A DNA stretch of 64,000 nucleotides from Comamonadaceae bacterium. GTDB lineage: Bacteria; Pseudomonadota; Gammaproteobacteria; Burkholderiales; Burkholderiaceae_C. Made by a program: the position numbers and the translations under genes. Position 1 is the first letter of the stretch. Each line of letters opens with the position of its first letter. Positions 4,433-63,820 of the stretch are shown here, piece by piece. The notes below the pieces were generated by a model. That model was not told the DNA's origin and searched no databases. It saw only the letters and a program-made list of their open reading frames with translations. Location of the stretch: NCBI GenBank assembly GCA_031421855.1, contig JANOPN010000198.1, positions 2,397-66,396 of the forward strand, written 5' to 3'.

Positions 4433-4441
4433 CGCGTCGAA

Positions 4442-4496
4442 CTACTAAATTTATAGCAACAAACTCAATGAATCCGGTGACCAAGGGGCGATATTA
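4442..4496 (+). repeat. Family-A interspersed repeat, copy 1 (core ATAGCAACAAACTCAATGAATCCGGTGACCAAGG at 4453-4486)
   Basis: Fills almost the entire 64-nt murC-ddl gap. Its core is identical to copy 2. The 3' AAGGGG (4483-4488) lies 8 nt upstream of the ddl ATG. Confidence 0.9.
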
Positions 4497-5477
4497 ATGA
4501 AAAAAGGTGCTTTTCGAACGTTGGCAACCCCAAAATCGATGGGGCGAGTCGCCGTGCTGATGGGCGGACGCTCTGGCGAGCGCGAGGTGTCGCTGATGAG
4601 TGGCCGTGGCGTGCTCGACGCGCTCACGTCAATGGGAGTCGACGCGCATGCGTTCGATCCCGCAACGCAGGCCCTCGGCGAGCTGCAAAGCGAAGGTGTT
4701 CAACGAGCGTTCATCAATTTGCACGGGCGACTGGGCGAAGACGGCTCTATTCAAGGCTGCCTGGAGTGGCTGGGCATCCCGTACACCGGTTCAGGCGTCA
4801 TGGCTTCGGCCATTGCAATGGACAAAGTCATGACCAAACGGCTTTGGATCGCGCAAGGTCTACCCACACCACGCCACGAAGTTTTGAGCAAACAGCATCA
4901 CGCACCCGCGTTTACGCGACTGGTACCGGACCGATTGGGCCTGCCTTTGATCGTCAAGCCACCGCACGAAGGCTCTAGCTTGGGCGTAACCAAGGTGATG
5001 GGCTATAGCCAAATGCAAGAGGCCGTGCGAATCGCTGCAGCCCTAGACCCAGACGTGCTGGTTGAAGAATTCATCGAAGGGCAGGAGGTGACCTGCCCAA
5101 TTTTGGGTGAAGGCGATACCGCCCAAGCCTTGCCAGTGGTGCGGATCGCCGCGCCCGGCGGCAACTACGACTACCAAAACAAATATTTCACCGATACGAC
5201 TGGCTACCACTGCCCCAGCGGTCTACCCGACGGCGAAGATGCTGCGATCCAAGCCCTGGCGCTCAAGTCGTATCAGTCTTTGGGGTGTCGCGGCTGGGGC
5301 CGCGCTGACTTGATGATCCGCGCCAGTGATCGCAAGCCGTTTTTGCTGGAGATGAACACCTCGCCCGGCATGACCAGCCACTCGCTGGTGCCCAAGTCAG
5401 CGTCGGCTGCCGGCCTCAGTTACCCCGATCTTTGTCTGTACATCCTGAGCCTTGCACGGCTCGACACCAACTGCTGA
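4497..5477 (+). CDS. ddl: D-alanine--D-alanine ligase
   Basis: ATP-grasp protein with [19 protein letters not shown] and C-terminal [10 protein letters not shown]. Sits between murC and ftsQ. Confidence 0.93.
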
Positions 5478-12359: not shown

Positions 12360-12369
12360 AATGAAACCA

Positions 12370-12434
12370 TCATATTCATAGCAACAAACTCAATGAATCC
12401 GGTGACCAAGGGCCAAAAAGTCATAAAAATGACC
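12370..12434 (+). repeat. Family-A interspersed repeat, copy 2 (core 12378-12411)
   Basis: 34-nt core identical to copy 1. Tail is GGCCAAAAAGTCATAAAAATGACC. Fills the gap between ruvC and the CdsA-like gene. Confidence 0.9.
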
Positions 12435-14100: not shown

Positions 14101-14149
14101 GCCGCAAGCGACAAAGGGCCTGAATGCCGACGATTTAAGTTATCAGAGT

Positions 14150-14212
14150 CAAATTTATTAATATATTGGCTCTTGGTCACCGGATTCATTGACTTCGATG
14201 CTATGAATTTTA
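14150..14212 (-). repeat. Family-A interspersed repeat, copy 3 (core 14172-14204)
   Basis: Reverse complement reads TTCATAGCATCGAAGTCAATGAATCCGGTGACCAAGAGCC. Confidence 0.85.
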
Positions 14213-15816: not shown

Positions 15817-15927
15817 ACGGGTCATCCTCGAAGTGGTTGGTTTAGCAACGCATCGTGCCCCCAAGCCCGCGCGCCAAAACATCGGAAAACCCTTTGTTTC
15901 GTCACATCGGTGACGACAAGCACTCAC

Positions 15928-15990
15928 CAATTCATAGCACCAAAATCAATGGAATCGGCGACCAAGGGCCAATAAGTCCGATTTTTTGCG
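15928..15990 (+). repeat. Family-A interspersed repeat, copy 4 (core 15934-15967)
   Basis: TTCATAGCACCAAAATCAATGGAATCGGCGACCAAGGGCCAATAAGTCC. Confidence 0.8.
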
Positions 15991-17374: not shown

Positions 17375-17445
17375 TTGAGCATTTTTTGTGAGTTATTGGC
17401 ACTTGGTCTCCGTATCTATTGACTTTGTTGCTATTATTTTTGAAT
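17375..17445 (-). repeat. Family-A interspersed repeat, copy 5 (core 17402-17434)
   Basis: Reverse complement reads TTCAAAAATAATAGCAACAAAGTCAATAGATACGGAGACCAAGTGCCAATAACTC. Confidence 0.85.
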
Positions 17446-23133: not shown

Positions 23134-24339
23134 ATGAAACAACTCACAGAAGCCTACATCGTCGCCGCCACGCGCACCCCGATTGGCCGCTCGCACAAGG
23201 GCAGCTTCAAGCATTTGCGCCCTGACGACTTGCTGGCTCGCGCCATTCGCTCGGCGCTGGCTCAAGTTCCCGGGCTGGACTCCGCTTCGATTGAAGACGT
23301 GATCGCCGGTTGCGCCATCCCCGAAGCACAGCAGGGCTTAAACGTGGCGCGCATTGGCGCGGTTTTAGCTGGGCTGCCCACGTCAGTCGGTGGCATCACC
23401 GTGAACCGCTTTTGCGCCTCGGGCATCAGCGCGGTTCAAATGGCGGCTGATCGCATCCGCGTGGGAGAAGCTGACGTCATGATTGCCGCTGGCTGCGAAA
23501 GCATGAGCATGGTGCCGATGATGGGCAACACGCCGAGCTTGTCGCCCAGCATTTTTGGCAACACCGACAACGTAGACGACTACGGCATTGCCTACGGCAT
23601 GGGCTTGACGGCTGAGAAAGTCGCCAACCAATACCAAGTCAGCCGCGACGCGCAAGACGAGTTTGCCTACAAAAGCCACATGAAGGCCATCGCCGCCATG
23701 AAAGCGGGGCATTTTTCGGCTGAAATCACACCGATCGAAGTGACCGAGCGCAGCGTCAACCTGGACACCACCGAAGTCAGCTTGAACACCAAAATTGTGA
23801 GCTTAGACGAAGGCGCACGCCCTGACACCACGGTCGAGGGCCTGGCCAAGCTGAAGGCGGTTTTTGCTGCTCGCGGCTCGGTCACGGCTGGCAACAGCTC
23901 GCAGACATCCGACGGCGCAGGCGCACTCATTTTGGCCAGTGAATCCGCCGTTAAGCGCTTCAATTTGAAGCCGCTGGCCCGGTTTGTCAGCTTTGCCAGC
24001 AAGGGCGTGCCCCCGCATTTGATGGGCATTGGCCCCATCGCCGCGATCCCGGCTGCGCTCAAATCGGCTGGCTTGCACCTGGACGACATCGACTGGTTTG
24101 AGCTCAACGAGGCGTTTGCGGCGCAGTCCTTAGCCGTCATCAACACCCTGGGTCTCAACCCCGAGCGCGTCAACCCCATGGGCGGCGCGATTGCACTGGG
24201 CCACCCATTGGGCGCCACCGGCGCGATTCGGGCCGCGACCGTTGTCCATGCGCTGCAACGCACGCAAGGGCGCTTCGGCATGGTCACCATGTGCGTGGGC
24301 ATGGGCCAAGGCGCTGCGGGCATTTTTGAGCGCGTTTAG
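23134..24339 (+). CDS. Acetyl-CoA C-acyltransferase (3-ketoacyl-CoA thiolase)
   Basis: AYIVAATRTPIGRS, active-site region VNRFCASGISAV, C-terminal [17 protein letters not shown] and MCVGMGQG. Confidence 0.93.
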   Translation: MKQLTEAYIVAATRTPIGRSHKGSFKHLRPDDLLARAIRSALAQVPGLDSASIEDVIAGCAIPEAQQGLNVARIGAVLAGLPTSVGGITVNRFCASGISAVQMAADRIRVGEADVMIAAGCESMSMVPMMGNTPSLSPSIFGNTDNVDDYGIAYGMGLTAEKVANQYQVSRDAQDEFAYKSHMKAIAAMKAGHFSAEITPIEVTERSVNLDTTEVSLNTKIVSLDEGARPDTTVEGLAKLKAVFAARGSVTAGNSSQTSDGAGALILASESAVKRFNLKPLARFVSFASKGVPPHLMGIGPIAAIPAALKSAGLHLDDIDWFELNEAFAAQSLAVINTLGLNPERVNPMGGAIALGHPLGATGAIRAATVVHALQRTQGRFGMVTMCVGMGQGAAGIFERV

Positions 24340-24344
24340 TCGTT

Positions 24345-24410
24345 TTTTATGAGAAATTAACCATTGGTCACCGGATTCATTGACTTCTATGCTATTTAAT
24401 TAGTAGCAAA
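24345..24410 (-). repeat. Family-A interspersed repeat, copy 6 (core 24362-24395)
   Basis: Reverse complement reads GCTACTAATTAAATAGCATAGAAGTCAATGAATCCGGTGACCAATGG. Confidence 0.85.
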
Positions 24411-25242: not shown

Positions 25243-25254
25243 CCTGAGATAATC

Positions 25255-25320
25255 CCATTTTGATAGCATCAAACCCAATGAATTCGGTGACCAAAGGCTA
25301 AAAATGCATCAAAATGACCT
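25255..25320 (+). repeat. Family-A interspersed repeat, copy 7 (core 25263-25297)
   Basis: GATAGCATCAAACCCAATGAATTCGGTGACCAAAGGCTAAAAATGCATCAAAATGACC. Its tail contains the SD-like AAAGG and the ATG (25304) of the downstream SDR gene. Confidence 0.85.
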
Positions 25321-28218: not shown

Positions 28219-28220
28219 AA

Positions 28221-28283
28221 TTAAAATAATAGCAACGAACCCAATAGATCCGGAGACCAAGGGCTGATTTCACTCAAAAAATG
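28221..28283 (+). repeat. Family-A interspersed repeat, copy 8 (core 28229-28262)
   Basis: TTAAAATAATAGCAACGAACCCAATAGATCCGGAGACCAAGGGCTGATTTCACTCAAAAAATG. Ends at the dacB stop codon. Confidence 0.85.
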
Positions 28284-29849
28284 TCAAAAATCAACTTCCA
28301 GACTGATTTTTGAGCCGCGCGACTTCGCCGCCCATTCGATCACTGCGTCCAGCACGGCGCGGGCGGTTTTGCCTTGGACTTTTTCATCGTTGAGCATGGC
28401 CACCACCACCAAGGGCTGGTCGGCTGCATCGCGCACATAGCCGGCCACGGCGTAGGCATTTCTGAGCGTTCCGGTTTTCATGCGGGCGCGCTCTTGGGCT
28501 GCGGTGTTTTTGAGCCGATTGCGCATGGTGCCATCCACCCCCACGATGGGCATGCTGGCTTGCAACTCGGGCGCCCACCGGCTCGCGCCGGCCACTTGCA
28601 AAACCTGGCCGAGCGTGCGGGCGCTGATGCGCTCGCTGCGCGACAAGCCGGAGCCATTGTCCAAAACCAAACCCGTGGTGTCGATTTGGTTGTCAGTCAT
28701 CCAGGCTTTGACGCTGGCTGCCGCCCGGTCGGCTGTGTGGTTCGCCCCCACGGCTGCAGACTGCGTTCCCAACGCCAAAAAGGTCATCCGGGTAATCGGA
28801 TTGTCGCTGATTTTGTTGATCTCGCGCAGCAGTTCAGACAAGGGGCGAGCGCTGCTGCTGGCCAAGATTTGTCCAGCTGGCAAAACCTCTGCGGGTGTCG
28901 CTTCGCGCACCGCGGCAGACCAAACACCGCCCATTTGCCGCCAAAGGCTCGCCAAAAAACCATGGGCAAACCGGGTGCGATCGAGCACGTTGAGCTGGGT
29001 TGATGCCTTGCAGTTGCGCGGAAAAGTGCCCGACAGCTTGACGGTTGCCGTGCCATTGGCTTCAACGACAACGGGCAAAACCCATCCGTTTTCCCAAGAC
29101 GGGCAGCTCGCGTCGATCAATTTGAAGTCACCAGTCAGCGCCACACCGGCAAGCGGCGGATCCATCGCCAAGCTCACGGTCGTCGAGGTCGATTGCAGGC
29201 GAACGCCCATCAAGTTCATGTTGAGCGAAAGTGCATCTGGCACGACGTTGTAGCGAAACTCGGGCGCTTCATCGAAGGGCGTGAGGCCCAAATCGGGCCG
29301 CGTCGGCGAGTAGTGCGAACGATCAATCACGACGGTGCCGCTGATCTCACGCACGCCAGAGTCCATCAAACTCTTGAGCCAACGATTCGTGGCTTCAACA
29401 TTCAACTCGGCATGTCCAACACCACGAATGACCGATGTCCCAGCCAATGCCGTGTTTGAGGCGTCAGCCGCACCCGACAAAGTGCCCCGCCACTCGACAC
29501 GCCCACGATGCAGTGGCCCCAAACGCTCCAAAGCGACCACGGATGTGATCAGTTTCATCGTCGAGCCGGGCTGCATCGGCACGTCCACGTTGTACGACAA
29601 CCTGGCTTGGGCGCGCCGATTGAGCGGTTGCACCAAAATCGACACCGAATTTAATGGTAGTTCAGCAGAGCTAATGAGAGCCAGAACGTCGGGTGGAAGG
29701 GCTGAGTTAGTGCGTGGTTCAGCATGCGACAGGGCCGAATGAGAGGTTGCGCACGCACCCAGTGCGCCAATGGCGGCCAACGCGGCTAAGCCAAACACCA
29801 TCCGGCCAGCACGCAACACAAACCGCCCGATCTGTCGAAGTAAAAACAT
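28284..29849 (-). CDS. dacB: D-alanyl-D-alanine carboxypeptidase/endopeptidase (PBP4, peptidase S13)
   Basis: SxxK (PGSTMKL), SxN (KISDNP) and KTG (RMKTGTL) motifs. Signal-like N-terminus MFLLRQIGRFVLRAGRMVFGLAALAAIGALGACA. ATG 29849 with AGGA 9 nt upstream. Confidence 0.88.
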   Translation of the reverse strand: MFLLRQIGRFVLRAGRMVFGLAALAAIGALGACATSHSALSHAEPRTNSALPPDVLALISSAELPLNSVSILVQPLNRRAQARLSYNVDVPMQPGSTMKLITSVVALERLGPLHRGRVEWRGTLSGAADASNTALAGTSVIRGVGHAELNVEATNRWLKSLMDSGVREISGTVVIDRSHYSPTRPDLGLTPFDEAPEFRYNVVPDALSLNMNLMGVRLQSTSTTVSLAMDPPLAGVALTGDFKLIDASCPSWENGWVLPVVVEANGTATVKLSGTFPRNCKASTQLNVLDRTRFAHGFLASLWRQMGGVWSAAVREATPAEVLPAGQILASSSARPLSELLREINKISDNPITRMTFLALGTQSAAVGANHTADRAAASVKAWMTDNQIDTTGLVLDNGSGLSRSERISARTLGQVLQVAGASRWAPELQASMPIVGVDGTMRNRLKNTAAQERARMKTGTLRNAYAVAGYVRDAADQPLVVVAMLNDEKVQGKTARAVLDAVIEWAAKSRGSKISLEVDF

Positions 29850-34020: not shown

Positions 34021-34090
34021 TACTATGTTTTTAGTAGCAACAAACTCAATGAATCCGGAGACCAAGTGCCGAAAAATCCTAAAATTCGAT
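34021..34090 (+). repeat. Family-A interspersed repeat, copy 9 (core ~34034-34068)
   Basis: TTTTTAGTAGCAACAAACTCAATGAATCCGGAGACCAAGTGCCGAAAAATCCTAAAATTCG. Lies between the convergent ldcA and AmpH-like genes and overlaps the latter's stop codon. Confidence 0.85.
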
Positions 34091-45796: not shown

Positions 45797-45817
45797 TGCG
45801 ATTTCAGGCGATTCGCG

Positions 45818-46840
45818 TCACAAGCTGACCCGGTTCTCGGTCAGGTAGAACCACTCATTTCCCGGCAATGCGTTGGCATCAGGGAACAAAATTCGGCCGC
45901 TGATTGGGGAGCGCACTTCGGTGCCGTCTGCCCGGGTGCCAATCAAGTCACCCACGCTCAAACTGTCAAAACTGCCCCACGTGCGGACGAAGGTGTCGCC
46001 AGCGTCTAGCCGGTCAATGACGTCGATCATGCTGAGGTACTCGTAGCTTGCTACCGGCACGGGCGGCTGGGCGTCGCTGATGCCCAAATGTGCCAATGTG
46101 TTGCAAATGGCTTGGTACGCCACCTCGGGCGATTGCGGGTCGGCGTGCGAGCCGCACTCCAGCGTGATGGCGTAGCCGCCCATCGCTCGCATGTATTCGG
46201 TGGTGCCCACGCCGTAGCGCGAGTCGGTGTTCAGGGCTGCGCTTTTGCTGTCTTTGCCGCCGACACCGCCTTGGGCCATGCGTTGCGCTCTGCGCATCGT
46301 TCCTTGGGCATAAGTGTTGAGCCAACCATCCACAAAGCGGCCTACGCCCAACCGCAGCGCCATGGCACGCTCCGCTTTTTCGTGTGTAAACGACTGCAAC
46401 ACCCCGTTGTTGTCTCGTGGACCAATCATGGCAAACGCGGGGTTTTGCGCATGGGTTGAGTGGCAATCCAACAGCACATCGTGGGCAGCAAGCTGGGGGC
46501 ACAACCAGTTGGCGATGCCATCTTCAAAGTCTTGCGCTTGATCCGTTGGGAACAGGTTGCGGTTGAGGTTGCGGTCACCCACACGCACCCCGCGCGCATA
46601 CGCCAAAGGGTTCGTTACTGGAACCAAGGTCAACATCCCGGCGCGAATGCGAATGGCTCCGCGCTCAATGTCAGCCATGACGCGGCGAATCGCGATGGGG
46701 CCACAGACCTCGTTGCCGTGCACCGCGCCCGTGACGATCAAACTAAGCCCCGGGCGCTGCCCGTGAAACTGGTGCGACGCGAAATGCAACGCAGCGGCAT
46801 CGATCGGCAAGCCTGCCGGCGTGGTGTATGGAGTGGTCAT
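45818..46840 (-). CDS. Succinylglutamate desuccinylase/aspartoacylase (AstE/AspA) family zinc hydrolase
   Basis: LIVTGAVHGNEVCGP zinc-binding HxxE motif, plus a later His (LLDCHSTH). ATG 46840 preferred over TTG 46846. Confidence 0.72.
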   Translation of the reverse strand: MTTPYTTPAGLPIDAAALHFASHQFHGQRPGLSLIVTGAVHGNEVCGPIAIRRVMADIERGAIRIRAGMLTLVPVTNPLAYARGVRVGDRNLNRNLFPTDQAQDFEDGIANWLCPQLAAHDVLLDCHSTHAQNPAFAMIGPRDNNGVLQSFTHEKAERAMALRLGVGRFVDGWLNTYAQGTMRRAQRMAQGGVGGKDSKSAALNTDSRYGVGTTEYMRAMGGYAITLECGSHADPQSPEVAYQAICNTLAHLGISDAQPPVPVASYEYLSMIDVIDRLDAGDTFVRTWGSFDSLSVGDLIGTRADGTEVRSPISGRILFPDANALPGNEWFYLTENRVSL

Positions 46841-46875
46841 GACCAATTTGGGCGCGCTTGCACCCGTTGAAGATG

Positions 46876-46940
46876 TTCAAAAATAGTAGCAACGAACTCA
46901 ATAGATTTCGAGACCAATGGCCAAAAATCCATCAAAAACA
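46876..46940 (+). repeat. Family-A interspersed repeat, copy 10 (core 46886-46920)
   Basis: TTCAAAAATAGTAGCAACGAACTCAATAGATTTCGAGACCAATGGCCAAAAATCCATCAAAAAC. Confidence 0.85.
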
Positions 46941-46944
46941 CGCT

Positions 46945-47196
46945 TCAATGCTCGTGACGCATACCGCAGTGCTTGCCGATGGCCAGCCCTTTGCAGGCGG
47001 TTTGCAACTCAGCCTGACACACATCGTGTTTTTTGCCGCTTTCAAGGCACTTGGCTGCGGCTTCGTGCGCAGCAGCCATGGCGCGGTGGCGGGCGATATC
47101 GGCTTTGGTTTCTTTGTCGCCGTGCGGTGCGGCCCCGGCGGCCAATGCAAGCAGGGCCAAGCTGGTGGCGATGATGAGGGTGCGGGAGAAATTCAT
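46945..47196 (-). CDS. Small secreted Cys/His-rich protein (83 aa), possible metal-binding protein
   Basis: Signal peptide MNFSRTLIIATSLALLALAAGAA. Mature part has 4 Cys, several His and a C-terminal GKHCGMRHEH. No family recognised. Confidence 0.55.
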   Translation of the reverse strand: MNFSRTLIIATSLALLALAAGAAPHGDKETKADIARHRAMAAAHEAAAKCLESGKKHDVCQAELQTACKGLAIGKHCGMRHEH

Positions 47197-47228
47197 ATTT
47201 GTTCAGTGAGTTGATGGTTAGGCTTGGT

Positions 47229-47795
47229 TCAGCGCCCCAAGCCCCAGCCTTGTTGTGCTGCGGTGGCTTCAAGGCTGGAGATGCGCGCAGCTGCATTGTC
47301 GCGCGCAAGTTGGGCTGTTGCGGCATCGCGGCGCGCACCTGCACGGTCAGCGGTCGGCTTTTTATCGTCGCTGGCGATCGCTTGGGCTTTGCGCACGGCG
47401 TTTTCGGCACGGCTCAAATCATCGTCCGCAGTTTTGAGCACGCGGCCCATGTCATGGGCTCGCAAAAAATCGAAATCAAGCGGCGGCGTGCAAATGTTTT
47501 GGTGATTTGCGCCCTCACGGCCCAATTTGAGCGCGTTGCGCGGCGCGCAGTAGGCGGCAAACCCGCCGCCCCAAGCCTGCTCGAAGGCCGCCTGGTTGAC
47601 GGCAAAACCGGCGACCGCACATTCGCGCGACGCCCGACTCCAGCTGCTGGCCAGTGGCTCGCCGCGCGCAACCGCTCGCGCGCCCGAACGAGCCCAGTCC
47701 GTGTTGGCGCATTCAGCGGCCGTTTTGGGTGCACTTTCGCAACCCGCCACGAAAACAGTGGCGGCCGCCAACGCGCAAAAACTCAATCGATTCAT
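47229..47795 (-). CDS. DUF2799-like lipoprotein
   Basis: Lipobox ATVFVAGC. Repeated C..(T)DW...G.....G and C motifs recalled from DUF2799. C-terminal coiled-coil-like Ala/Arg-rich segment. Confidence 0.6.
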   Translation of the reverse strand: MNRLSFCALAAATVFVAGCESAPKTAAECANTDWARSGARAVARGEPLASSWSRASRECAVAGFAVNQAAFEQAWGGGFAAYCAPRNALKLGREGANHQNICTPPLDFDFLRAHDMGRVLKTADDDLSRAENAVRKAQAIASDDKKPTADRAGARRDAATAQLARDNAAARISSLEATAAQQGWGLGR

Positions 47796-47817
47796 TGCCC
47801 AAACCCTTAAAAATCTA

Positions 47818-47847
47818 TTTTCACCAAGCAAGCGCTTGCTAAAATAA
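47818..47847. promoter_or_regulatory. Candidate TetR operator: perfect 14-bp palindrome AGCAAGCGCTTGCT (47827-47840) in an A/T-rich frame
   Basis: 24-50 nt upstream of the TetR ATG at 47871. 14 nt (CCAAGCAAGCGCTT) plus flanks recur at 62522-62550. Confidence 0.55.
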
Positions 47848-47870
47848 AACCATTCTGATATGGTTCATCC

Positions 47871-48629
47871 ATGCCCCGCGACCCTGACCCCGACCTCAAA
47901 CCCGATGCACCCGATGCACCCGATGCACCCGACGAGCCCGCTGTGCCCAGCGCACGCGCCCGGGGACGTCCGCGCAAAACCTTGAGCGAGCGCGACGACG
48001 GCAATCGCCGCATGGGGTTGATTGAGGCAGCAGCCAAATTGTTCCGCCAAAAAGGCTTTGCTGCAACCGCAACCCGAGACATCGCGTCAGCCGTCGGCAT
48101 GCGCAGCGGCAGCCCGTTTTACCACTTCAAAAGCAAAGACGATTTGCTGGCCGCCGTGATGGAACAAGGCATGACAAGGGCCATTGAAAGCCAGCAGTTG
48201 CGACTGAGTTCACTCCTAAATAGTGAGCAACAAACCCAACAGATTCGGAGACCAAGTGCTGATTTCACGTCAAAAGTGCTGCAAATCTTGGTTCGCAACC
48301 ATTTTGAGGTGCTGGTAGGCCCCGGCAGCGACTTCATACCGGTCATGTTGTACGAATGGCGCTCATTGGGCGACGATGCGCGGGCGCGGGTTCAGGCCTT
48401 GCAAACCCAATACGAGGCCGCTTGGCGACCCGTTTTGTCGGTCCTGCACGCCTCGGGGCGGCTGCGCGGGGATGAAAAACTGGCGCGACTGCTCATTTTT
48501 GGCGCCCTGAACTGGACGGCACAGTGGTATCGAATGGGTGATGCAGGCAACCCCGGTGTCGCCACGCTTGACGAGCTTACCGACAGCGCATTGGCCCTGT
48601 TCCTACACGACCTTGCGCCCGCCAAATAG
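47871..48629 (+). CDS. TetR-family transcriptional regulator (AtuR-like position) carrying an in-frame family-A repeat insertion
   Basis: HTH region LIEAAAKLFRQKGFAATATRDIASAVGMRSGSPFYHFKSKDDLL. 252 aa, longer than the usual ~200 aa because of a Pro/Asp-rich N-terminal tail and a ~20-aa insert. Confidence 0.85.
   Translation: MPRDPDPDLKPDAPDAPDAPDEPAVPSARARGRPRKTLSERDDGNRRMGLIEAAAKLFRQKGFAATATRDIASAVGMRSGSPFYHFKSKDDLLAAVMEQGMTRAIESQQLRLSSLLNSEQQTQQIRRPSADFTSKVLQILVRNHFEVLVGPGSDFIPVMLYEWRSLGDDARARVQALQTQYEAAWRPVLSVLHASGRLRGDEKLARLLIFGALNWTAQWYRMGDAGNPGVATLDELTDSALALFLHDLAPAK
47901..47933 (+). repeat. 9-bp tandem repeat CCCGATGCA x3 (plus a partial unit) encoding PDA-PDA-PDA
   Basis: Direct reading. 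Lies in the N-terminal tail of the TetR gene. Confidence 0.9.
48215..48275 (+). repeat. Family-A interspersed repeat, copy 11, inside the TetR CDS (core 48223-48258)
   Basis: AAATAGTGAGCAACAAACCCAACAGATTCGGAGACCAAGTGCTGATTTCACGTCAAAAGTG, translated in frame as NSEQQTQQIRRPSADFTSK. Confidence 0.85.
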
Positions 48630-48653
48630 ACTGATTCAGGACACCATCACCCC

Positions 48654-50336
48654 ATGACCGCCAGCTTTCAACCCAGCTTCAACACGTCCAGCCCCACCGC
48701 GCTGGCTCGCGCAACCGCGATGCGCGCCAAGGTCGAGTCGCTCAGGGCGCTAGAGGCCCGCGCGACTTACGAGTCGAGCAAGTCACGCGCGACGTTTGAC
48801 AAGCGCGGCCAGTTGCTGCCGCGTGACCGAGTGGCCTTGCTGATCGATCCGCACACACCGTGGTTGCCACTGATGAGCTTGGTCGGCTACGGGCTTGACG
48901 TGGAAACCAGCAACGACCCTGTCGCCCAGGCCAAGGCCCTGTCGCAGTCGATCCCCGGCGGCGGCATGGTCGCAGGCATTGGATTCATCAGCGGGGTGCG
49001 GTGCATGGTGAGTGCGAGCGACTCCGGCATTGAGGCCGGTGCCATCCAAGCAGGTGGCCTACAAAAAATCCTTCGCGTGCAAGAAATCGCGCTACAAAAC
49101 AAACTGCCATTCATCCATTTGGTTGAAAGCGCAGGGGCCAATTTGCTTCGCTACCGGGTTGATGGCTTTGTGCAAGGCGGCGCACTGTTTCGCAATCTGG
49201 CGCGCTTGTCGGCGGCTGGCATCCCGGTGTTGACGATTCAGCATGGCTCAGGCACAGCAGGCGGCGCGTACATGCCGGGCTTGAGTGACGCGGTGATCAT
49301 GGTCGAGGGGCGATCAAGGGCGTTTTTGGCCGGCCCCCCCTTGCTCAAGGCCGCAACTGGCGAGATTGCAGGAGAGGAAGAGCTGGGCGGCGCATTCATG
49401 CACGCCAGCGTCTCAGGCTTGGGCGAGGCTTTGGTGGCAGACGACCGCGAAGCCATTGGCCTGGCACGTGCCTGGGTGGCTCAATGGGAGCATTTCAAGC
49501 CAAATTTGATGCCAAATATGGCCTTGGTCACCGAATCTATTGAGTTTACTGCTACTAATAGCATAGCAAGTGACGACATGCTCGCGCTGATGCCGTCACA
49601 CTACGCCGAGCCGGTTGACATGCGCGAAGTGATGCATCGGCTGGTTGACTTGCAGCTGTTTGAGTTCAAAGCCCTTTATGGCGCGGCGACCATTTGCGCT
49701 CAAGGCCAGATTGGCGGACACAGCGTGGGCTTCATCAGCAACAACGGCCCAATCGACGTGGCCGGTGCCAACAAGGCCACCCATTTCATCCAGCACATGT
49801 GCCAACTGGGGCACCCCATCATCTACTTGCAAAACACCACCGGCTACATGGTGGGTGTGGCCAGTGAGCAGGCTGGCATGATCAAGCACGGCAGCAAAAT
49901 GATCCAAGCGGTGACGAACGCCAGCGTGCCCCAAATCACCATCCAGTGCGGCGCCAGTTTTGGAGCAGGCAACTACGGCATGTGCGGCCGGGCGTTTGAG
50001 CCCCGTTTTTTGTTCAGCTGGCCCGGCGCACAAACCGCCGTCATGGGCGGTGAGCAAGCGGCTGGCACCATGCGCGAAGTCGTCATGGGCGCGTTTGCCA
50101 AGCGCGGCCTCACCCCAAGCCCCGAGCAAAGCGCGAAATTTGAAGCCCAAGAGCGCGCCATCGTGGCCTTGTTTGCAGCGCAGCAAGATGGGTTTATCAC
50201 CAGCGGCATGGGCTTGGACGACGGCGTGATCGACCCCCGAGACACCCGCGCGACGCTGATCGAATGCTTGGACATGTGCGCCCAGGCCGCCACCCGACAA
50301 CTTCGCCCCACGTCGTTTGGCGTGGCGCGCATGTGA
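48654..50336 (+). CDS. Acyl-CoA carboxylase carboxyltransferase (beta) subunit, methylcrotonyl-/geranyl-CoA carboxylase type, carrying an in-frame family-A repeat insertion
   Basis: Two crotonase-like CT halves: GGMVAGIGFISGV...; NKATHFIQHMCQLGHPIIYLQNTTGYMVG; GASFGAGNYGMCGRAF. 560 aa. Confidence 0.88.
   Translation: MTASFQPSFNTSSPTALARATAMRAKVESLRALEARATYESSKSRATFDKRGQLLPRDRVALLIDPHTPWLPLMSLVGYGLDVETSNDPVAQAKALSQSIPGGGMVAGIGFISGVRCMVSASDSGIEAGAIQAGGLQKILRVQEIALQNKLPFIHLVESAGANLLRYRVDGFVQGGALFRNLARLSAAGIPVLTIQHGSGTAGGAYMPGLSDAVIMVEGRSRAFLAGPPLLKAATGEIAGEEELGGAFMHASVSGLGEALVADDREAIGLARAWVAQWEHFKPNLMPNMALVTESIEFTATNSIASDDMLALMPSHYAEPVDMREVMHRLVDLQLFEFKALYGAATICAQGQIGGHSVGFISNNGPIDVAGANKATHFIQHMCQLGHPIIYLQNTTGYMVGVASEQAGMIKHGSKMIQAVTNASVPQITIQCGASFGAGNYGMCGRAFEPRFLFSWPGAQTAVMGGEQAAGTMREVVMGAFAKRGLTPSPEQSAKFEAQERAIVALFAAQQDGFITSGMGLDDGVIDPRDTRATLIECLDMCAQAATRQLRPTSFGVARM
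49505..49567 (-). repeat. Family-A interspersed repeat, copy 12, inside the carboxyltransferase CDS (core 49522-49556)
   Basis: Plus strand reads GCCTTGGTCACCGAATCTATTGAGTTTACTGCTACTAATAGC, the reverse complement of the family core. Translated in frame as ALVTESIEFTATNS. Confidence 0.85.
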
Positions 50337-50362
50337 TTTTTGCCATTTTTTAGGAGCCCACC

Positions 50363-51553
50363 ATGAAGTTCACCGAAGACCACCGAGCCATGCAGCGCAC
50401 GCTTGAGCGGTTCATTGACAACGAGATCAACCCCCATGTCGACGAATGGGAAGCCGCCGAGATATTCCCAGCCCACGAGCTGTTCAAGAAAATGGGCGAT
50501 TTGGGCCTTTTGGGGCTCACCAAGCCCGAAGCCTACGGCGGAAGCGGGCTTGACTACTCGTTCTCAGTCGCGATGGCCGAGACCTTGGGGCACATCAAAT
50601 GCGGCGCAATCCCGATGGCGATTGGCGTACAGACCGACATGTGCACACCCGCGCTGGCCAAATTTGGCTCTGATGCGCTGCGCGAGCAATTCCTCAAACC
50701 CGCCATCGCCGGCGACATGGTGGGCTGCATCGGCGTGAGCGAGCCCGGCGCGGGCAGCGACGTGGCCAGCATCAAGACCTACGCAAAAAAGGACGGTGAC
50801 GACTACGTGATCTCGGGTCAAAAAATGTGGATCACCAACAGCTTGCAAGCCGATTGGATGTGCATGCTGGTCAACACCGCGCCCGTCGAAGAAAAAGGCG
50901 TGCACAAGAACAAGAGTTTGATCATGGTGCCGATGCGCGACGGCAAAAACGGCACCCTGACCAAAGGCATCGAAGTCGCCAAAAAGATCCGCAAAATCGG
51001 CATGAACGCCAGCGACACCGGCCTGATCTACTTTGACGAGGTGCGGGTTCCCCAGGCGTATTTGCTGGGCAAAGAAGGCGCGGGCTTCAGCTACCAGATG
51101 CAACAGTTCCAAGAAGAGCGCCTGTGGGCAATGGCCAGCTGCATTCAGGGCCTCACCAACTGCATCGAATGGACGATCGAGTGGGCGCAGTCGCGCAAAG
51201 TCTCGGGGGGCGCACTGGCTGACCAGCAATGGGTGCAGTTCAAACTCGGCGAAATGATGACCGAGGTTGAATGTTTGCGAGCGCTTACTTACCGGGCGTG
51301 TGAGCTGTACACGAGCGGCGAGGACGTCACCATGCTGGCCAGCATGGGCAAGCTAAAAGCTGGTCGCATGAACCACGACATCCCCCACGGTTGCCTTCAG
51401 TTTTGGGGTGGCATGGGCTACACCTGGGACAACCCGGTGAGCCGCATGTACCGCGACGGCCGTTTGGCCTCCATTGGCGGCGGCGCAGACGAGGTCATGC
51501 TGGGCATCATTGCCAAAATCGCTGGCATTGCTAAGCAGCGGTTACCGGGATGA
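50363..51553 (+). CDS. Acyl-CoA dehydrogenase (isovaleryl-/citronellyl-CoA dehydrogenase-like)
   Basis: GCIGVSEPGAGSDVASI, ITNS, and the C-terminal QFWGGMGY...YRDGRLASIGGGADEV ACAD pattern. TAGGAG SD. Confidence 0.88.
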   Translation: MKFTEDHRAMQRTLERFIDNEINPHVDEWEAAEIFPAHELFKKMGDLGLLGLTKPEAYGGSGLDYSFSVAMAETLGHIKCGAIPMAIGVQTDMCTPALAKFGSDALREQFLKPAIAGDMVGCIGVSEPGAGSDVASIKTYAKKDGDDYVISGQKMWITNSLQADWMCMLVNTAPVEEKGVHKNKSLIMVPMRDGKNGTLTKGIEVAKKIRKIGMNASDTGLIYFDEVRVPQAYLLGKEGAGFSYQMQQFQEERLWAMASCIQGLTNCIEWTIEWAQSRKVSGGALADQQWVQFKLGEMMTEVECLRALTYRACELYTSGEDVTMLASMGKLKAGRMNHDIPHGCLQFWGGMGYTWDNPVSRMYRDGRLASIGGGADEVMLGIIAKIAGIAKQRLPG

Positions 51554-53532
51554 AACGGTTACTGATTGCCAATCGAGGCGAGATCGCGCGCCGTGTCATG
51601 CGCACCGCTTACCAAATGGGTGTGCAAACCGTCGCGGTGTACTCGGACGCAGATGCAAACGCGCTTCACGTCGCCGATGCCGACTCAGGCGTCGCCTTGG
51701 GTGGCAATGCCTCAGCCGACAGCTATTTGCGCATCGACAAGCTGCTGGCAGCGGCAAAAGCCAGCGGGGCCGACGCGGTGCATCCGGGCTACGGGTTTTT
51801 GAGCGAAAGCGCCGAGTTTGCCCAAGCGGTGATCGACGCGGGGCTGATTTGGGTCGGGCCGCCGCCATCGGCCGTGCAGGCCTTGGGCAGCAAGTCAGCT
51901 TGCAAGGCGCTGGCCCGCCGACAAGGCGTGCCAGTCTTGGGCGGCTACGAGGGCGCAGACCAAAGCGACGAGCGCTTTGTGGCCGAGGCCGCTGGCATGG
52001 GCTTTCCGGTCATGGTCAAAGCGGCGGCGGGCGGCGGCGGGCGTGGCATGCGGTTGGTGCATTCGGGTGATCAGCTCGTTGCCTCGCTTGCCAGCGCGCG
52101 CTCTGAGGCCTTGGCAGGATTTGGCAACGCCGAGCTGCTCATGGAGCGCGCCTTGCTTGCGCCACGCCATGTCGAGGTGCAGGTTTTTGCCGACCAGCAT
52201 GGCAACTGCATCCACTTAGGCGAGCGCGATTGCTCAGTGCAGCGGCGCAACCAAAAAATCATTGAAGAGTCGCCCAGCCCTGCCGTCTCGCCCGAACTTC
52301 GCCAGCGCATGGGCGCTTGTGCTGTGGCGCTTGCCCTAGGCGCAGGCTATGTGGGCGCGGGCACGGTTGAGTTTTTACTCGAAGGGGGCGAGTTCTATCT
52401 GATGGAGATGAACACGCGGCTACAGGTCGAGCATCCAGTCACCGAGGCCGTCACCGGGCTTGACTTGGTCGAGTGGCAGCTTCGCATCGCGCGCGGCGAG
52501 GCATTGCCGCTGACGCAAGCGCAGGTCAAGCTCACCGGTCACGCAATCGAGGTGCGCCTGTGCGCCGAAGATGAGCAGTTCAACCCGCACGCCGGTCGCG
52601 TCACCGCGCTGATCTGGCCAAGCGATGCCATCGAATTCGCTCGAGCCGACATGCACGCAGGCGTGCGCATCGATCACGCGCTGGAGCGTGGTTTGGTCGT
52701 GCCTGAGTTTTACGACTCGATGCTGGGCAAATTGATCGCCCACGCGCCCACCCGAAGCGAGGCCATCGAGCGGCTGAGCCATGCTCTAGCGCGCACCGTC
52801 GTCGCCGGGCTACCCACCAACCGCGCGATGCTGTTGGCCTGCTTGGGCCACGCTGAGTTTGTCCAAGGCAATGCCTTGGTGCCTTTTTTGGGCACACATG
52901 CCCAAGGACTGCGTGACACCATCCATGCGCGCGAGACCGCGCTTTTGGGGTTTGCGGTTTCCGCGTGGGTGATGTCGCGCGCTGGCAATACCCGGCCAAG
53001 CGCGTCGCTGGCTTGCCCGTTCATCCGCAGCTTGCGCCTCGTCCACCGTGGCCAGCGCATGGATGTGGCGGTGCTGGAATTGGGCAACGGTCGGCTGCAG
53101 CTGGAAGTCGCCGACTTGGAGGTCATGGCGCAGGTCCGTTGGCGCTCCGATCACGAACTTGACGTGTCGATTGACGGCCTCAATCGGCGAGTGGCGGTCG
53201 CGCCAGAAGGCTTTTTGCAGCTCGACGGGGTGTCGTTTGAGTTCAGCGACGCGACATTTGCGCCCCCGGTCAAGGCAATGGATGCCAACACCGAGCGCCA
53301 AATTGCCGCACCCATGAACGGCAAAGTCGTCTCGGTCAACGTGGTCATTGGCCAAGCCGTGCACGCAGGTGATGTGTTGGTCATCATCGAGGCCATGAAG
53401 CTCCAACACAACATCACCGCACCGCGCAACGGCACCGTTGAGCGCGTACACGCCACCCTGGGTGCGCAAGTTGCACCACGCGCCCTTTTGGTGGAGCTGA
53501 CGACCGCAACCGAAACCCAAACCGCCGCATGA
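51550..53532 (+). CDS. Acyl-CoA carboxylase alpha subunit (biotin carboxylase + biotinyl carrier domain)
   Basis: KRLLIANRGEIARRVMRTA, ATP-grasp MVKAAAGGGGRGMR, EMNTRLQVEHPVTE, and the C-terminal biotinylation motif IIEAMKLQH. ATGA overlap with the upstream stop. Confidence 0.92.
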   Translation: MKRLLIANRGEIARRVMRTAYQMGVQTVAVYSDADANALHVADADSGVALGGNASADSYLRIDKLLAAAKASGADAVHPGYGFLSESAEFAQAVIDAGLIWVGPPPSAVQALGSKSACKALARRQGVPVLGGYEGADQSDERFVAEAAGMGFPVMVKAAAGGGGRGMRLVHSGDQLVASLASARSEALAGFGNAELLMERALLAPRHVEVQVFADQHGNCIHLGERDCSVQRRNQKIIEESPSPAVSPELRQRMGACAVALALGAGYVGAGTVEFLLEGGEFYLMEMNTRLQVEHPVTEAVTGLDLVEWQLRIARGEALPLTQAQVKLTGHAIEVRLCAEDEQFNPHAGRVTALIWPSDAIEFARADMHAGVRIDHALERGLVVPEFYDSMLGKLIAHAPTRSEAIERLSHALARTVVAGLPTNRAMLLACLGHAEFVQGNALVPFLGTHAQGLRDTIHARETALLGFAVSAWVMSRAGNTRPSASLACPFIRSLRLVHRGQRMDVAVLELGNGRLQLEVADLEVMAQVRWRSDHELDVSIDGLNRRVAVAPEGFLQLDGVSFEFSDATFAPPVKAMDANTERQIAAPMNGKVVSVNVVIGQAVHAGDVLVIIEAMKLQHNITAPRNGTVERVHATLGAQVAPRALLVELTTATETQTAA

Positions 53533-54104
53533 ACCGCAGAGACCTTGTGTGCGCTGGCGCTTTGTTGCCGATTGCGAGCGCATGGAGCCAGCCCGATCCG
53601 TGGACACAAGTCTTGCCGGGGCGTATCGTGCTCATGCGCCATGCAATGGCACCCGGCATTGGCGACCCACCTGGCTTTAAACTCAACAACTGCGCTTCAC
53701 AGCGCAACCTCGACGAGGTTGGCAAAGATCAAGCGCGGCGCATCGGCGCGGCGTTTGCCCAGCACGCGGCCAAATCTGGCGTCAAAGTCACATCGGTCTG
53801 GCACTCGCAGTGGTGCCGAACCACCGACACCGCGCAGTTGGCCTTTGGCAATGCCCCAAAGCCTGTAGCCCAAAGCGCGTTCAATTCGTTTTTTGGCAAT
53901 GCCGATGCCGCCCCGCAGCAAACCGCCGCCGCACGCAAACTGCTCATGGCCTGGGTCGCAAGCAAGCCCGTGGGCGTGTTGGTGGTCGTCACCCACCAAG
54001 TCAACATCACGGCGCTGACGCAGATGGGCGCCGCCTCAGGCGAATCAGTGATCGTCGCCGCAGCCGGTCAAAAACTCATCGTCGTCGGCCAACTACCGCC
54101 TTGA
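53529..54104 (+). CDS. Histidine phosphatase superfamily protein with a Tat-like signal
   Basis: MNRRDLVCAGALLPIASAWS signal, RHA motif (LMRHAMAPG) and a distal VVVTHQ His. ATGA overlap with the carboxylase alpha subunit stop. Confidence 0.7.
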   Translation: MNRRDLVCAGALLPIASAWSQPDPWTQVLPGRIVLMRHAMAPGIGDPPGFKLNNCASQRNLDEVGKDQARRIGAAFAQHAAKSGVKVTSVWHSQWCRTTDTAQLAFGNAPKPVAQSAFNSFFGNADAAPQQTAAARKLLMAWVASKPVGVLVVVTHQVNITALTQMGAASGESVIVAAAGQKLIVVGQLPP

Positions 54105-54127: not shown

Positions 54128-54192
54128 AGATTTTTAGTGGAAAATCAGCACTTGGTCACCGTATTCATTGGGTTAGTTGCTATTATTTTTGA
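54128..54192 (-). repeat. Family-A interspersed repeat, copy 13 (core 54151-54183)
   Basis: Reverse complement reads ATCAAAAATAATAGCAACTAACCCAATGAATACGGTGACCAAGTGCTGATTTTCCACTAAAAATC. Its A-rich 5' flank holds the last codons and the TAA stop (54183-54185) of atuA. Confidence 0.85.
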
Positions 54193-55997
54193 TTGTCCAG
54201 CTTCACCCACGCCATCAAACTCGGTGGCACTTTGATCGGCATGTTGAGCAATATTTGAGCCATGCCTTTGCCCAGCGGGTCGTGGCGAAGGCTGGCCATG
54301 CCGCCGCCGTCTAGGGCTTGCTGGCAGACGAAATTGAAAGCGTTGATGCCGGGTAATTCGTATCGCGTGACACTGCCGCTGACGAAATGGGCCAAGTACC
54401 CAGCGACGGCAGCTTCAGTGACTTGAACGGCGATCAAACCGAGCAAGTCTGGGTGTCGAGCAACGATGCCGATGTTGGATGTGTCGCCTTTGTCGCCGCT
54501 GCGGCCATGAGCAACGGCAATCAACGGCACGGTGACGCTATCGGTCAAATCAATCACGGGCCATGCTTTGGGGGTACCAGGCTCGTCGCCCGTATCGATG
54601 CCCGGCGCGACATCAATGGCGGTTGACACATCGCCAATTTTCATCGTTGCGCGCACGAGCGGCTTATCGATCAAGAAGCCAAACTGCTTGATGCAAGGGT
54701 TGACGCTGGGTCGGCCGCCGTCCATGCCAGTCGTACCGGGGCTAAACGACGTACCCGGTGCTGCAATTTCTCGCGCAAAAATCTCAAGTGCGGCTTTCAC
54801 GGGATGGCGAACAGCCAAACGCAAAATGGCCTCGCGCACATGCACGCCATGCGCGTGCGGGCCAAATGCGTTCTCGGTTCCCAGGATTTCAATGTTGGTG
54901 GCGCTGTAGTCGGGCAAGCCCAACCGCGCAAACATCGCGCGGGTGCGCTCCAGCAAAGCCTCACCGGTGCGCCGCGCTTTTGCTGCCGCATCAAACCCGA
55001 TGATTGCGATTTGCACGACGCTTTTGAATCCGTCCATGTATGTCGCGCTGACCTTGTACTGCGCCGGTGCGGGCAACCCACGTGCGCCGGTGACGCGAAC
55101 CGCGTGCTCGCCGACCGCCGCGAGCTGCACATGGGTGAAGTCGCAAATCACGTCCGGCAGCCGGTAGTGCGCCGGGTCGTGAATTTCGTACAGCAACTGC
55201 TCTGCGATCACCGCGGGCGTGACCAACCCACCGGTGCCTGGCGGTTTGGTCGCAATGAAGCTGCCGTCAAACGAGACCTCAACAATGGGGTAGCCGATGT
55301 TGGCCCAGTCTGGCACGTCTTGCCAATCGGTGAACAAACCGCCAGTACCCTGTGCGCCGCACTCAATGATGTGCCCCGCCAAACTGCCTTGGGCCAACTC
55401 ATTAAGCTGATCGGCGCGCCAATTGAAATGGTGCATGAGCGCACCCAGCGTAACGGCGCTGTCGACGCACCGACCGGTGATGACGACATCGGCCCCGGCG
55501 TCCAGCGCGGCCTTGATTGGCAACGCGCCCAAATACGCATTGGCCGTGAGCAACTTGTCTGGCAGCGCGCGCGTGCCGTTGAACTCACGCGTGCCCAGCT
55601 CGCGCAGCAGGGGCAGCCGATCGGTCACATCGTCTCCGAGCACCACGGCGACTTTGAGATCAAGCCCAAGTTCTGCCGCCAAGGCCTCTACTGCTTTGGC
55701 ACACGACTGAGGATTCACTCCGCCTGCATTGCTGATCAAGCGGATGCCCTTGGCTTTGCAGTCTTTGAGGATTTGGCGGCAGGTGACCGTGACGAAATCA
55801 AGTGCAAAACCCGCGTCCGGGTTTTTCATACGCTGCGCGGCCATGATGCTCATGGTCAGCTCAGCCAAGTAGTCAAACACCACGAAATCAACATCGCCAA
55901 ATGCCACCAATTGGGGTGCGCCGACGCTGCTGTCGCCCCAAAATCCACTCGCTCCGCCGATGCGCAGGGGTTTGATTGCTGTGGTGGTGTTGTTCAT
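54183..55997 (-). CDS. atuA: AtuA-family protein (DUF1446, acyclic terpene utilisation; includes the C-terminal DUF4387-like part)
   Basis: N-terminal LRIGGASGFWGDS signature; 604 aa, similar in size to P. aeruginosa AtuA. Next to an atuC/D/F-like carboxylase cluster. Confidence 0.78.
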   Translation of the reverse strand: MNNTTTAIKPLRIGGASGFWGDSSVGAPQLVAFGDVDFVVFDYLAELTMSIMAAQRMKNPDAGFALDFVTVTCRQILKDCKAKGIRLISNAGGVNPQSCAKAVEALAAELGLDLKVAVVLGDDVTDRLPLLRELGTREFNGTRALPDKLLTANAYLGALPIKAALDAGADVVITGRCVDSAVTLGALMHHFNWRADQLNELAQGSLAGHIIECGAQGTGGLFTDWQDVPDWANIGYPIVEVSFDGSFIATKPPGTGGLVTPAVIAEQLLYEIHDPAHYRLPDVICDFTHVQLAAVGEHAVRVTGARGLPAPAQYKVSATYMDGFKSVVQIAIIGFDAAAKARRTGEALLERTRAMFARLGLPDYSATNIEILGTENAFGPHAHGVHVREAILRLAVRHPVKAALEIFAREIAAPGTSFSPGTTGMDGGRPSVNPCIKQFGFLIDKPLVRATMKIGDVSTAIDVAPGIDTGDEPGTPKAWPVIDLTDSVTVPLIAVAHGRSGDKGDTSNIGIVARHPDLLGLIAVQVTEAAVAGYLAHFVSGSVTRYELPGINAFNFVCQQALDGGGMASLRHDPLGKGMAQILLNMPIKVPPSLMAWVKLDNQK

Positions 55998-61179: not shown

Positions 61180-61255
61180 AAATACTATTATTTATGTAGC
61201 AACAAAGTGAATAGATATCGAGACCAAGTGCCAAAAACACCCAATATTTCACTCA
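61180..61255 (+). repeat. Family-A interspersed repeat, copy 14 (core 61196-61230)
   Basis: TATTTATGTAGCAACAAAGTGAATAGATATCGAGACCAAGTGCCAAAAACACCC. Confidence 0.8.
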
Positions 61256-63747: not shown

Positions 63748-63754
63748 ATGAGTC

Positions 63755-63820
63755 CTAAAGATATAGCAACAGATTCAATGAATCCGTTGACCAAGTGCCG
63801 AAAAGTCATTATTTTTTGTC
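63755..63820 (+). repeat. Family-A interspersed repeat, copy 15 (core 63763-63796)
   Basis: AAGATATAGCAACAGATTCAATGAATCCGTTGACCAAGTGCCGAAAAGTCATTATTTTTT. Confidence 0.85.

Follow-up and report, generated by a model that had tools for sequence, protein, structure and literature searches.

An in-frame repeat copy, probably old and inherited, in the interdomain linker of a geranyl-CoA carboxylase-type carboxyltransferase from a Comamonadaceae bacterium

A dispersed repeat with a copy in a carboxyltransferase gene

We analyzed a 64,000-nt stretch of DNA from a Comamonadaceae bacterium (GenBank assembly GCA_031421855.1, contig JANOPN010000198.1, positions 2,397–66,396 of the forward strand; hereinafter the window) with respect to a short dispersed repeat, one copy of which lies in frame within a gene for the carboxyltransferase (CT, beta) subunit of an acyl-CoA carboxylase. 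The CT gene is an uninterrupted open reading frame (ORF) of 560 amino acids (aa) at 48654..50336 on the plus strand and includes ...KPNLMPNMALVTESIEFTATNSIASDD.... It is preceded by a gene for a 252-aa, AtuR-like TetR-family regulator (47871..48629, plus strand; Pfam TetR_N at residues 50–96 and TetR_C_24 at 137–246) and followed by genes for an AtuD-like acyl-CoA dehydrogenase (ACAD; 50363..51553, plus strand; Acyl-CoA_dh_N/M/1) and an AtuF-like biotin carboxylase/BT/BCCP alpha subunit (BC; 51550..53532, plus strand; Biotin_carb_N, CPSase_L_D2, Biotin_carb_C, BT_MCC_alpha and Biotin_lipoyl). Convergent with this operon is a gene for an AtuA-family protein (54186..55997, minus strand; Pfam AtuA, E-value 9e-139, and AtuA_ferredoxin), and the neighborhood of TetR-CT-ACAD-BC and AtuA thus constitutes an Atu-like cluster.

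Multiple lines of comparison place the CT protein in the geranyl-CoA carboxylase (GCC) type, typified by AtuC. Beyond the Pfam Carboxyl_trans match (E-value 4e-100), its closest sequence in the PDB is the beta subunit of Pseudomonas aeruginosa GCC (PaGCC, 5ikl_B; E-value 3e-144), which is also the best Foldseek superposition of its AlphaFold2 (AF2) model (template modeling [TM] scores 0.80/0.87). The same model scores 0.74–0.77 against chains of methylcrotonyl-CoA carboxylase (MCC) and about 0.35 against propionyl-CoA carboxylase (PCC) and 12S chains; together with the Pfam matches, this gives the N–C domain connectivity of the MCC/GCC type and not that of the PCC type. The published structural work lists as marks of GCC-beta a long N-terminal helix α0 of ~30 residues that is missing in PCC-beta, a glycine (Gly162) where MCC has Phe191, and the lack of a 3-residue MCC insertion (PMC4673880). 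The CT model has a helix at residues 14–42, its FVQGG aligns to FVEGA of PaGCC and ..EHFGR of P. aeruginosa MCC, placing a glycine at the Gly162 position, and its alignment to MCC requires added positions in the latter. The JGI product name of its homologs is likewise "geranyl-CoA carboxylase beta subunit". The protein agrees with every mark from the structural work and is thus of the GCC-beta/AtuC type; we predict that it carboxylates geranyl-CoA. Its catalytic motifs are intact, and it would be an active enzyme. The initial annotation had called this subunit essential, which goes too far: growth on geranic acid depends on GCC, growth in general does not (PMC4673880).

An nhmmer profile made from the window's own copies of the repeat recovered the one within the CT gene on the minus strand at 49499..49567 (53.5 bits, E-value 1.3e-15), where the initial annotation had placed a minus-oriented copy of this family (family A) in the 560-aa ORF at 49505–49567, correctly to within 6 nt. 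The copy spans model positions 3–71, i.e., the full length, scores in the middle of the family's range of 46–60 bits, and has every invariant block of the family (AGCA, CAAT, and GACCAA). Its GC content (0.40–0.43) stands against ~0.62 for the gene, and the 60-mer at the site occurs once in the window, indicating a diverged member of the family and not a recent duplicate. Its 69 bases encode 23 aa in frame (residues 283–305, PNLMPNMALVTESIEFTATNSIA) in the linker that joins the N and C domains. Both the Pfam matches and the structure-sequence alignment bear out the earlier placement of the copy between the two Carboxyl_trans halves, directly upstream of the PVDMREV...FEFKALYG segment. The size proposed then, an insertion of ~20 aa, holds for the repeat-encoded peptide and not for the linker, whose net gain is only ~10 aa over repeat-free Comamonadaceae homologs (47 vs 37 aa between anchors) and ~7 aa over P. 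aeruginosa GCC-beta. The other part of the difference between 560 and 537 aa lies in an 11-aa loop at residues ~83–98 and, near residue 500, an insertion of 3 aa. This loop (VETSNDPVAQAKALSQS; window 48900–48950) is normal in GC content, not repeat-like, and found only in the two nearest relatives described below and a few others. The tail of the copy (49491–49520) has a 12-nt tandem duplication (TTCAAGCCAAAT|TTGATGCCAAAT, encoding FKPN|LMPN) that contributes 4 of the extra residues.

In the AF2 model, the insert-bearing protein retains the CT fold. Residues 285–303 have a predicted local distance difference test (pLDDT) score below 50 with confident domains on either side, and a helix is placed at 289–301. 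The equivalent linker varies in conformation by up to 10 Å between GCC and MCC, described as "dramatic structural plasticity", and in MCC touches the BT hook (PMC4673880).

A second in-frame copy, on the plus strand at 48212..48279 (53.8 bits, E-value 1.1e-15), occupies residues ~115–137 of the TetR protein between TetR_N and TetR_C_24. The CT and TetR copies are thus 1.3 kb apart in neighboring genes, in opposite orientations and translated in differing frames. At the N-terminus of the same TetR gene (47896–47944), we also observed a 9-nt tandem repeat (CCCGATGCA, three to four units, encoding PDAPDAPDAPDE) that is missing from both nearest relatives.

The profile detected exactly 15 family members in the window, in both orientations, and none weaker. 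As judged from a greedy longest-ORF map of the window, the other 13 are intergenic and nearly fill short spacers in tandem, convergent, and divergent contexts, in either orientation with respect to their neighbors. On the plus strand these are at 4441..4507 (57.2 bits), 12369..12431 (60.5 bits), 15923..15989 (52.1 bits), 25252..25318 (55.2 bits), 28220..28284 (57.2 bits) and 34022..34089 (60.4 bits), the last two between convergent gene pairs, 46875..46938 (47.7 bits), upstream of the cluster, 61184..61251 (46.4 bits), and 63751..63816 (52.9 bits). On the minus strand they are at 14148..14212 (54.1 bits), 17378..17445 (55.1 bits), 24339..24407 (51.7 bits), within a divergent gene pair, and 54129..54191 (53.3 bits), just upstream of the AtuA stop and downstream of a 191-aa ORF located after the gene for the alpha subunit. 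The copy at 4441–4507 fills the murC-ddl spacer of the highly conserved dcw cluster and has an 11-nt overlap with the predicted ddl start. Only 2 of the 15 copies are intragenic, yet ORFs make up ~90% or more of the window, as one would predict were most insertions into genes purged. The best minus frame is open in 8 of the 15 copies, the best plus frame in 6.

All copies are solitary (spacing at least 1.3 kb, never tandem), ~65–70 nt in length, and ~40% GC. Their 15-copy alignment has no evident terminal inverted repeat (TIR), and the ends of the element are fuzzy. Searching the whole window against Rfam 15 at the gathering threshold gave no match, and RNAalifold predicted no base pairs on either strand of the family alignment, ruling out a structured RNA or a REP (repetitive extragenic palindromic) hairpin for this variant; the fold z-score of the window-type linker is only –2.4. 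A promoter or terminator role is likewise unsupported, in that a scan of 44000–56000 placed no such site at the 4 copies there, with counts at or below the shuffle expectation. No Y1 transposase/RAYT domain was detected by Pfam in the 54 window ORFs scanned, i.e., all those of at least 90 aa but 62470–63747, the 64 kb being a small part of the genome. Separately, a 103-nt direct repeat pair with 93% identity (17184–17286 and 28116–28218), holding the terminator-like hairpin GCCGCTGGGGCGGTTTT, lies near two family copies: one member abuts the copy at 28220–28284, and the other ends ~90 nt before that at 17378–17445, such that the 103-nt repeat and the family copy may form a composite unit.

Age of the insertion and selection on the host gene

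In the protein collection, no CT relative exceeded 80% identity, and a contig scan of GTDB representatives gave no relative above 70%. The closest CT relatives are P0002 (80% aa identity) and P0003 (73%) from two independent metagenome-assembled genomes (MAGs), GCA_965187865.1 and GCA_965190865.1 (hereinafter L001 and L002), both of which keep the TetR-CT-ACAD-BC gene order. The L001 CT linker aligns with that of the window codon for codon, with zero gaps across the repeat and both flanks, and shares part of the 12-nt tail duplication (FKPN|NAKN), making the latter a locus-specific trait of both genomes. In L002, the CT gene has a copy that agrees in site, frame, and orientation, recovered by a profile of Polaromonas-type copies, all from outside CT genes (E-value 6e-4), as well as by a superfamily profile (E-value 3e-6). 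The TetR copy is also common to the window and L001 without a gap, while L002 has a 10-aa gap there. Neither of these two relatives has an insert-free CT linker. With synonymous changes between the window and L001 at saturation (dS 0.9–1.9), this sharing argues that both insertions are old, not recent, and that the one in CT appears to have been inherited.

The initial annotation had read the two coding copies, 1.3 kb apart in opposite orientations, as a sign of locally active spread or relaxed constraint on the cluster. Both copies are real; spread in the recent past is contradicted by their sharing with L001 at the above dS, and relaxed constraint by ω values (Nei-Gojobori, window vs L001) of 0.12 for TetR, 0.13 for CT (0.11 without the insert), 0.07 for ACAD, and 0.18 for BC.

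The peptide encoded by the insert presents a very different picture from its host. Inside it, pN (0.43) exceeds pS (0.24) between the window and L001. Similarly, among 21 Polaromonas-clade CT genes, which have an element variant of their own at this site, codon positions 1/2/3 differ by 0.23/0.30/0.33 within the element (aa 0.445), compared with 0.07/0.04/0.32 (aa 0.085) outside it in the same genes. By these substitution patterns, the insert peptide appears essentially free of protein-level selection and in near-neutral drift, and would be functionless.

Variants of the repeat and recurrent use of the linker

No window-type sequence occurred in 1.4 Mb taken from 80 further Comamonadaceae genomes, and a metagenome scan with CAATRRATNCGGNGACCAAG returned 81 single matches that cover the pattern alone, as expected by chance. 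The window-type (...AACAAACTCAATGAATCCGGTGACCAAG...), L001-type (...AACAAAGTGTTTAAATTCGCTGGCTAAC...), and Polaromonas-type (...TGCTTGCGC-N9-ATAAGGGCTGGAG...) variants nevertheless align without gaps as a superfamily with a shared layout: GCTAy-N7-rTAGC as the head, then ~25 nt of lineage-specific sequence, GCC, and an A/T-rich tail. In the window type, this head, a short local palindrome, is the only palindromic feature. The literature that we searched holds no account of this Comamonadaceae superfamily. In L001, the intergenic copies (7702–8037) form an inverted pair ~200 nt apart, a REPIN-like layout unlike that of the window, which brackets a GC-rich tandem array of about four GCGCGTTCGGTCT units followed by GCGCGGTCGGTCG. 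Further, a 266-aa ORF of the same operon contains a complete copy of the Polaromonas type at 11 loci of the Polaromonas clade (L047, 12845–13645, with the copy at 13505–13575; L031, L055, L075, L073, L072, L070, L040, L029, and L019, at ~13500–13545; L012, at ~4700). This ORF ends in ..AQAAIKFAANLRSPEAAEGLAAFAQKRKPGWAA and, by its C-terminal crotonase motif, presumably codes for an enoyl-CoA hydratase-like protein; its copy may be a third in-frame genic one in Atu-like clusters.

We surveyed the linker in 83 Comamonadaceae CT homologs. It is indeed variable, as the initial annotation had stated, ranging from 36 to 60 aa in 54 homologs, and 23 of 54 linker DNAs match elsewhere in the fetched loci with all CT genes masked. 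Across the 83, the linker contains a Polaromonas-type element in 22 (all on the minus strand at the same offset), an own variant in 2 (the window and L001), the head module only in 13, one of four other repeat-like classes in 20, and nothing recognizable in 26. The four other classes encode ..VRPEPVEG..STGSxRT.., ..SFPRRRES..WIPACAGMTG.., ..NRGQIP/LESDP.., and ..PTLPQGGRE/GEGWGG.., and their loci fall, by class, into L008, L012, L015, and L063; L046, L048, L050, L062, and L065; L033, L037, L049, L054, and L067; and L005, L043, L058, L060, L077, and L080. They are strong REP-like hairpins (fold z-scores –4 to –11), which the window and Polaromonas types are not; the tested ones fold with energies down to –107 kcal/mol (z –11), with further occurrences at as many as 11 other loci. 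One GC-rich class among them may be the published BRE repeat. Thus, at least five repeat types lie in frame in this linker, and the presence of unrelated hairpin classes implies that REP-like elements were independently fixed in frame in one hinge. The same linker was not encountered in genomes lacking the repeat; homologs sharing the segment carry their own superfamily variants. In a neighbor-joining tree of CT made with the linker excluded, carriers of the ATAGC type occur in at least three clades split by clades without the element; for these deeper clades, there may have been a single very old gain followed by losses or recurrent gains, both of which fit the tree.

We also compared the in-gene copies with the variant of their own genome, using five diagnostic columns for whose definition only intergenic copies served. 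In these columns, the window CT and TetR copies are window-type in 5 of 5, and those of L001 are L001-type in 4 of 5. The core identity is 0.70 between the window CT and TetR copies and 0.64 between those of L001, and only 0.61 between the two orthologous CT copies and 0.57 between the two TetR copies. Further, the L001 CT copy has a 17-nt exact run in common with an L001 intergenic copy. Paralogs being closer than orthologs is a signature of concerted evolution, and it is possible, on these similarities, that the in-gene CT and TetR copies evolve in concert with the other copies of their genome; this may come about by template-directed replacement or by gene conversion, through selection exerted by a DNA-binding or -processing factor that co-evolves, or by exact re-insertion. 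Only four copies, from three loci, define the L001 variant. The differences between the window and L001 types are not polarized by the Polaromonas type as outgroup, its central blocks being too different in a gapless alignment; for the same reason, we dropped the notion of the L001 type as an "intermediate".

Competing explanations and known repeat systems

We consider it highly probable that the CT copy is an old, inherited, and tolerated in-frame repeat serving as a passive spacer in a plastic linker of an enzyme under strong purifying selection. Under this proposal, the repeat would have entered CT in a stop-free orientation and frame no later than the ancestor that the window organism shares with its two nearest known relatives. 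In a linker of great and variable length and plastic conformation, the 23 extra residues would act merely as a spacer, with the enzyme remaining under strong purifying selection while the insert peptide drifts almost neutrally, and the insertion would persist because its clean removal needs a precise in-frame deletion. The earlier proposal that a repeat-derived segment is translated and tolerated in the linker of an AtuC/MccB-type beta subunit is supported. Several observations pull the other way. The insert DNA differs by 39% between the window and L001, which is below the flanking synonymous sites (pS 0.61); in Polaromonas, blocks like AGCTAt.aATTCagtAGC show conservation of at least 90% without regard to codon position; and the in-gene copies follow the variant of their own genome. 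A passive spacer alone predicts none of these. Moreover, tolerance of the insert would itself be read from conservation, and the AF2 model is moderate overall (mean pLDDT 73.8), with other segments of low confidence too.

These same observations lend some weight to an alternative, to which we give appreciable though lesser credence, namely, that the in-gene copy is a functional DNA element, such as a binding site for a factor that acts genome-wide or the substrate of a family-specific enzyme, that is kept or repeatedly re-templated with the peptide as a by-product. It would account for the conservation of the insert DNA beyond flanking synonymous sites alongside an unconstrained peptide, for the GCTAy-N7-rTAGC head being conserved irrespective of codon position, and for the window- and L001-type diagnostic columns, the closeness of paralogs, and the exact run shared within L001; a homogenizing or selective process acting on the DNA would then keep the in-gene copies matched to their genome's version. 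This alternative is weakened by the small, unpolarized L001 sample and by the family having no consensus structure, promoter or terminator signal, Rfam match, or orientation rule, and by the scanned window ORFs offering neither a candidate trans factor nor a transposase. RecA-type gene conversion is also unexpected between 65-nt copies at ~70% identity. The broader form of this idea, i.e., a Comamonadaceae-wide superfamily whose copies, including the genic ones, are actively kept matched to a genome-specific "master" by template-directed replacement or a co-evolving protein, we put forward tentatively. If true, DNA within an enzyme gene would evolve by the rules of a repeat family and not by those of the protein, and the hinge of GCC-beta would serve as a natural landing pad recording such master-matching in many lineages.

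The match to own-genome variants would also be explained directly were the linker an insertion hotspot that received its copies in the window, L001, L002, and Polaromonas separately, each from its own genome's family. At least four unrelated repeat types have clearly landed there independently, and the separated ATAGC-type clades are consistent with recurrent gains. Nevertheless, we find this unlikely for the copies at hand: the gap-free window/L001 alignment in both CT and TetR would demand that site, orientation, frame, and length coincide exactly on two occasions; all 22 Polaromonas-type matches within CT are on one strand at one offset; and the window and L001 share the locus-specific 12-nt tail duplication. 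An adaptive role for the peptide, with the longer linker selected for a new contact, e.g., with the BT hook of the alpha subunit, could draw on the contact in MCC (PMC4673880), the retention of the insert in every member of several clades, and the helix modeled at 289–301; set against an essentially unconstrained amino-acid sequence, a pLDDT below 50, and the unrelated repeat peptides that fill the same place in other lineages, it is improbable. Even less credible is recent insertion through locally active spread or under relaxed constraint, for which there are the proximity of the two intragenic copies in adjacent genes and the score of the CT copy, as high as those of intergenic ones. It conflicts with both copies being common to L001 at dS above 1, ω of 0.07–0.18 in the four genes, and intact catalytic motifs; a nucleotide identity of 75.6% also excludes L001 and L002 as mis-binned fragments of the window organism. 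Finally, the contig is MAG-like and an abundant repeat makes assembly collapse conceivable; but chance similarity, misassembly, or a pseudogene can practically be set aside in light of the full-length match (E-value 1e-15), the uninterrupted ORF, the same architecture in two other assemblies, and the strong purifying selection.

By comparison of their features, the palindromic elements of Rickettsia (RPEs) seem to be the closest analog among known systems. According to a published summary (Ogata et al., 2000; Ogata et al., 2002; as summarized in PMC10969869), these are palindromic, ~100–150 bp in length, encode a conserved peptide per family, and are intragenic in nearly half of the cases. Like the RPEs, the window family is dispersed between and inside genes, with genic copies that are in frame, open, tolerated by the fold, and inherited across species (13 intergenic and 2 in-frame intragenic copies, with both host ORFs open and conserved). 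Unlike them, its element is ~65–70 nt long, has no consensus hairpin, encodes a non-conserved peptide, is intragenic in only 2 of 15 cases, and resides in a free-living betaproteobacterial host. REP/REPIN sequences are hairpins, occurring as doublets and "almost exclusively" extragenic (PMC3116915; bioRxiv 10.1101/2021.07.10.451892). The REP/REPIN-RAYT systems and the present superfamily are alike in being short, abundant, vertically inherited, intergenic, and long-persisting, with a genome-specific "master" and a conserved rTAG(C) head, as also in the inverted pair of one L001 spacer; the window type differs in having single copies without the 20–40 nt imperfect palindrome and no RAYT in the scanned window ORFs. 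BRE, a repeat of Bordetella and Comamonadaceae, is usually intergenic, with "some ... located entirely within coding sequences" (Hot et al., 2011; PMC3110155). It is ~90 bp long, 69% GC, and often in tandem arrays (PMC3110155), whereas the window family is ~65 nt, ~40% GC, and never tandem; on length, GC content, and tandem layout, as compared with the published description and not the sequence, we rejected BRE as the identity of the window family.

Intragenic ERIC/MITE fusions, as summarized in a later source (Delihas, 2007, via PMC10969869), involve small mobile sequences with open frames fused in frame to host ORFs, a property shared by the window family. In contrast to the CT copy, which is shared across a deep divergence and in which no TIR was found, those are TIR-bearing, hairpin-forming, and mostly strain-specific. 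A further parallel is offered by the DNA uptake sequence (DUS) "dialects" of Neisseriaceae, which are described as having a lineage-specific variant throughout the genome, genic copies included (Frye et al., 2013, cited in PMC4212676). Here too, short dispersed sequences, some of them genic, follow a genome-wide variant, and natural transformation exists in a member of the Comamonadaceae. DUS and uptake signal sequence (USS) cores are, however, 9–12 nt, ~1 per kb, and common in coding DNA, unlike the unit in the window (~65 nt, ~1 per 4 kb, gene-depleted), and nothing in this analysis ties the latter to DNA uptake.

In-frame "selfish" repeats in genes are textbook knowledge for Rickettsia and poorly documented in free-living bacteria. 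Against this background, the value added here lies in the behavior of the hinge as a hotspot and, possibly, in the concerted evolution of the in-gene copies. A single hinge with at least five unrelated repeat types in 83 genomes amounts to a natural insertion-tolerance experiment for the MCC/GCC family, and it also sounds a warning for annotation, in that linker length and composition here mirror repeat content and not enzyme subtype. If the match of in-gene copies to their genome's own variant holds in complete genomes, it would provide a testable handle on the homogenization or selection of short repeats, a question open for REP-like elements; if it fails, the finding would be that of an ordinary, old, neutral insertion.

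Elsewhere in the window, the ORFs at 10023–11789, 14287–15930, and 57794–59020 (589, 548, and 409 aa) match no Pfam family at E-value ≤ 1e-5. Overall, the window has a GC content of 58.7%, and outside the Atu-like cluster it represents core chromosome, including the dcw cluster, ruvC, and β-oxidation genes.

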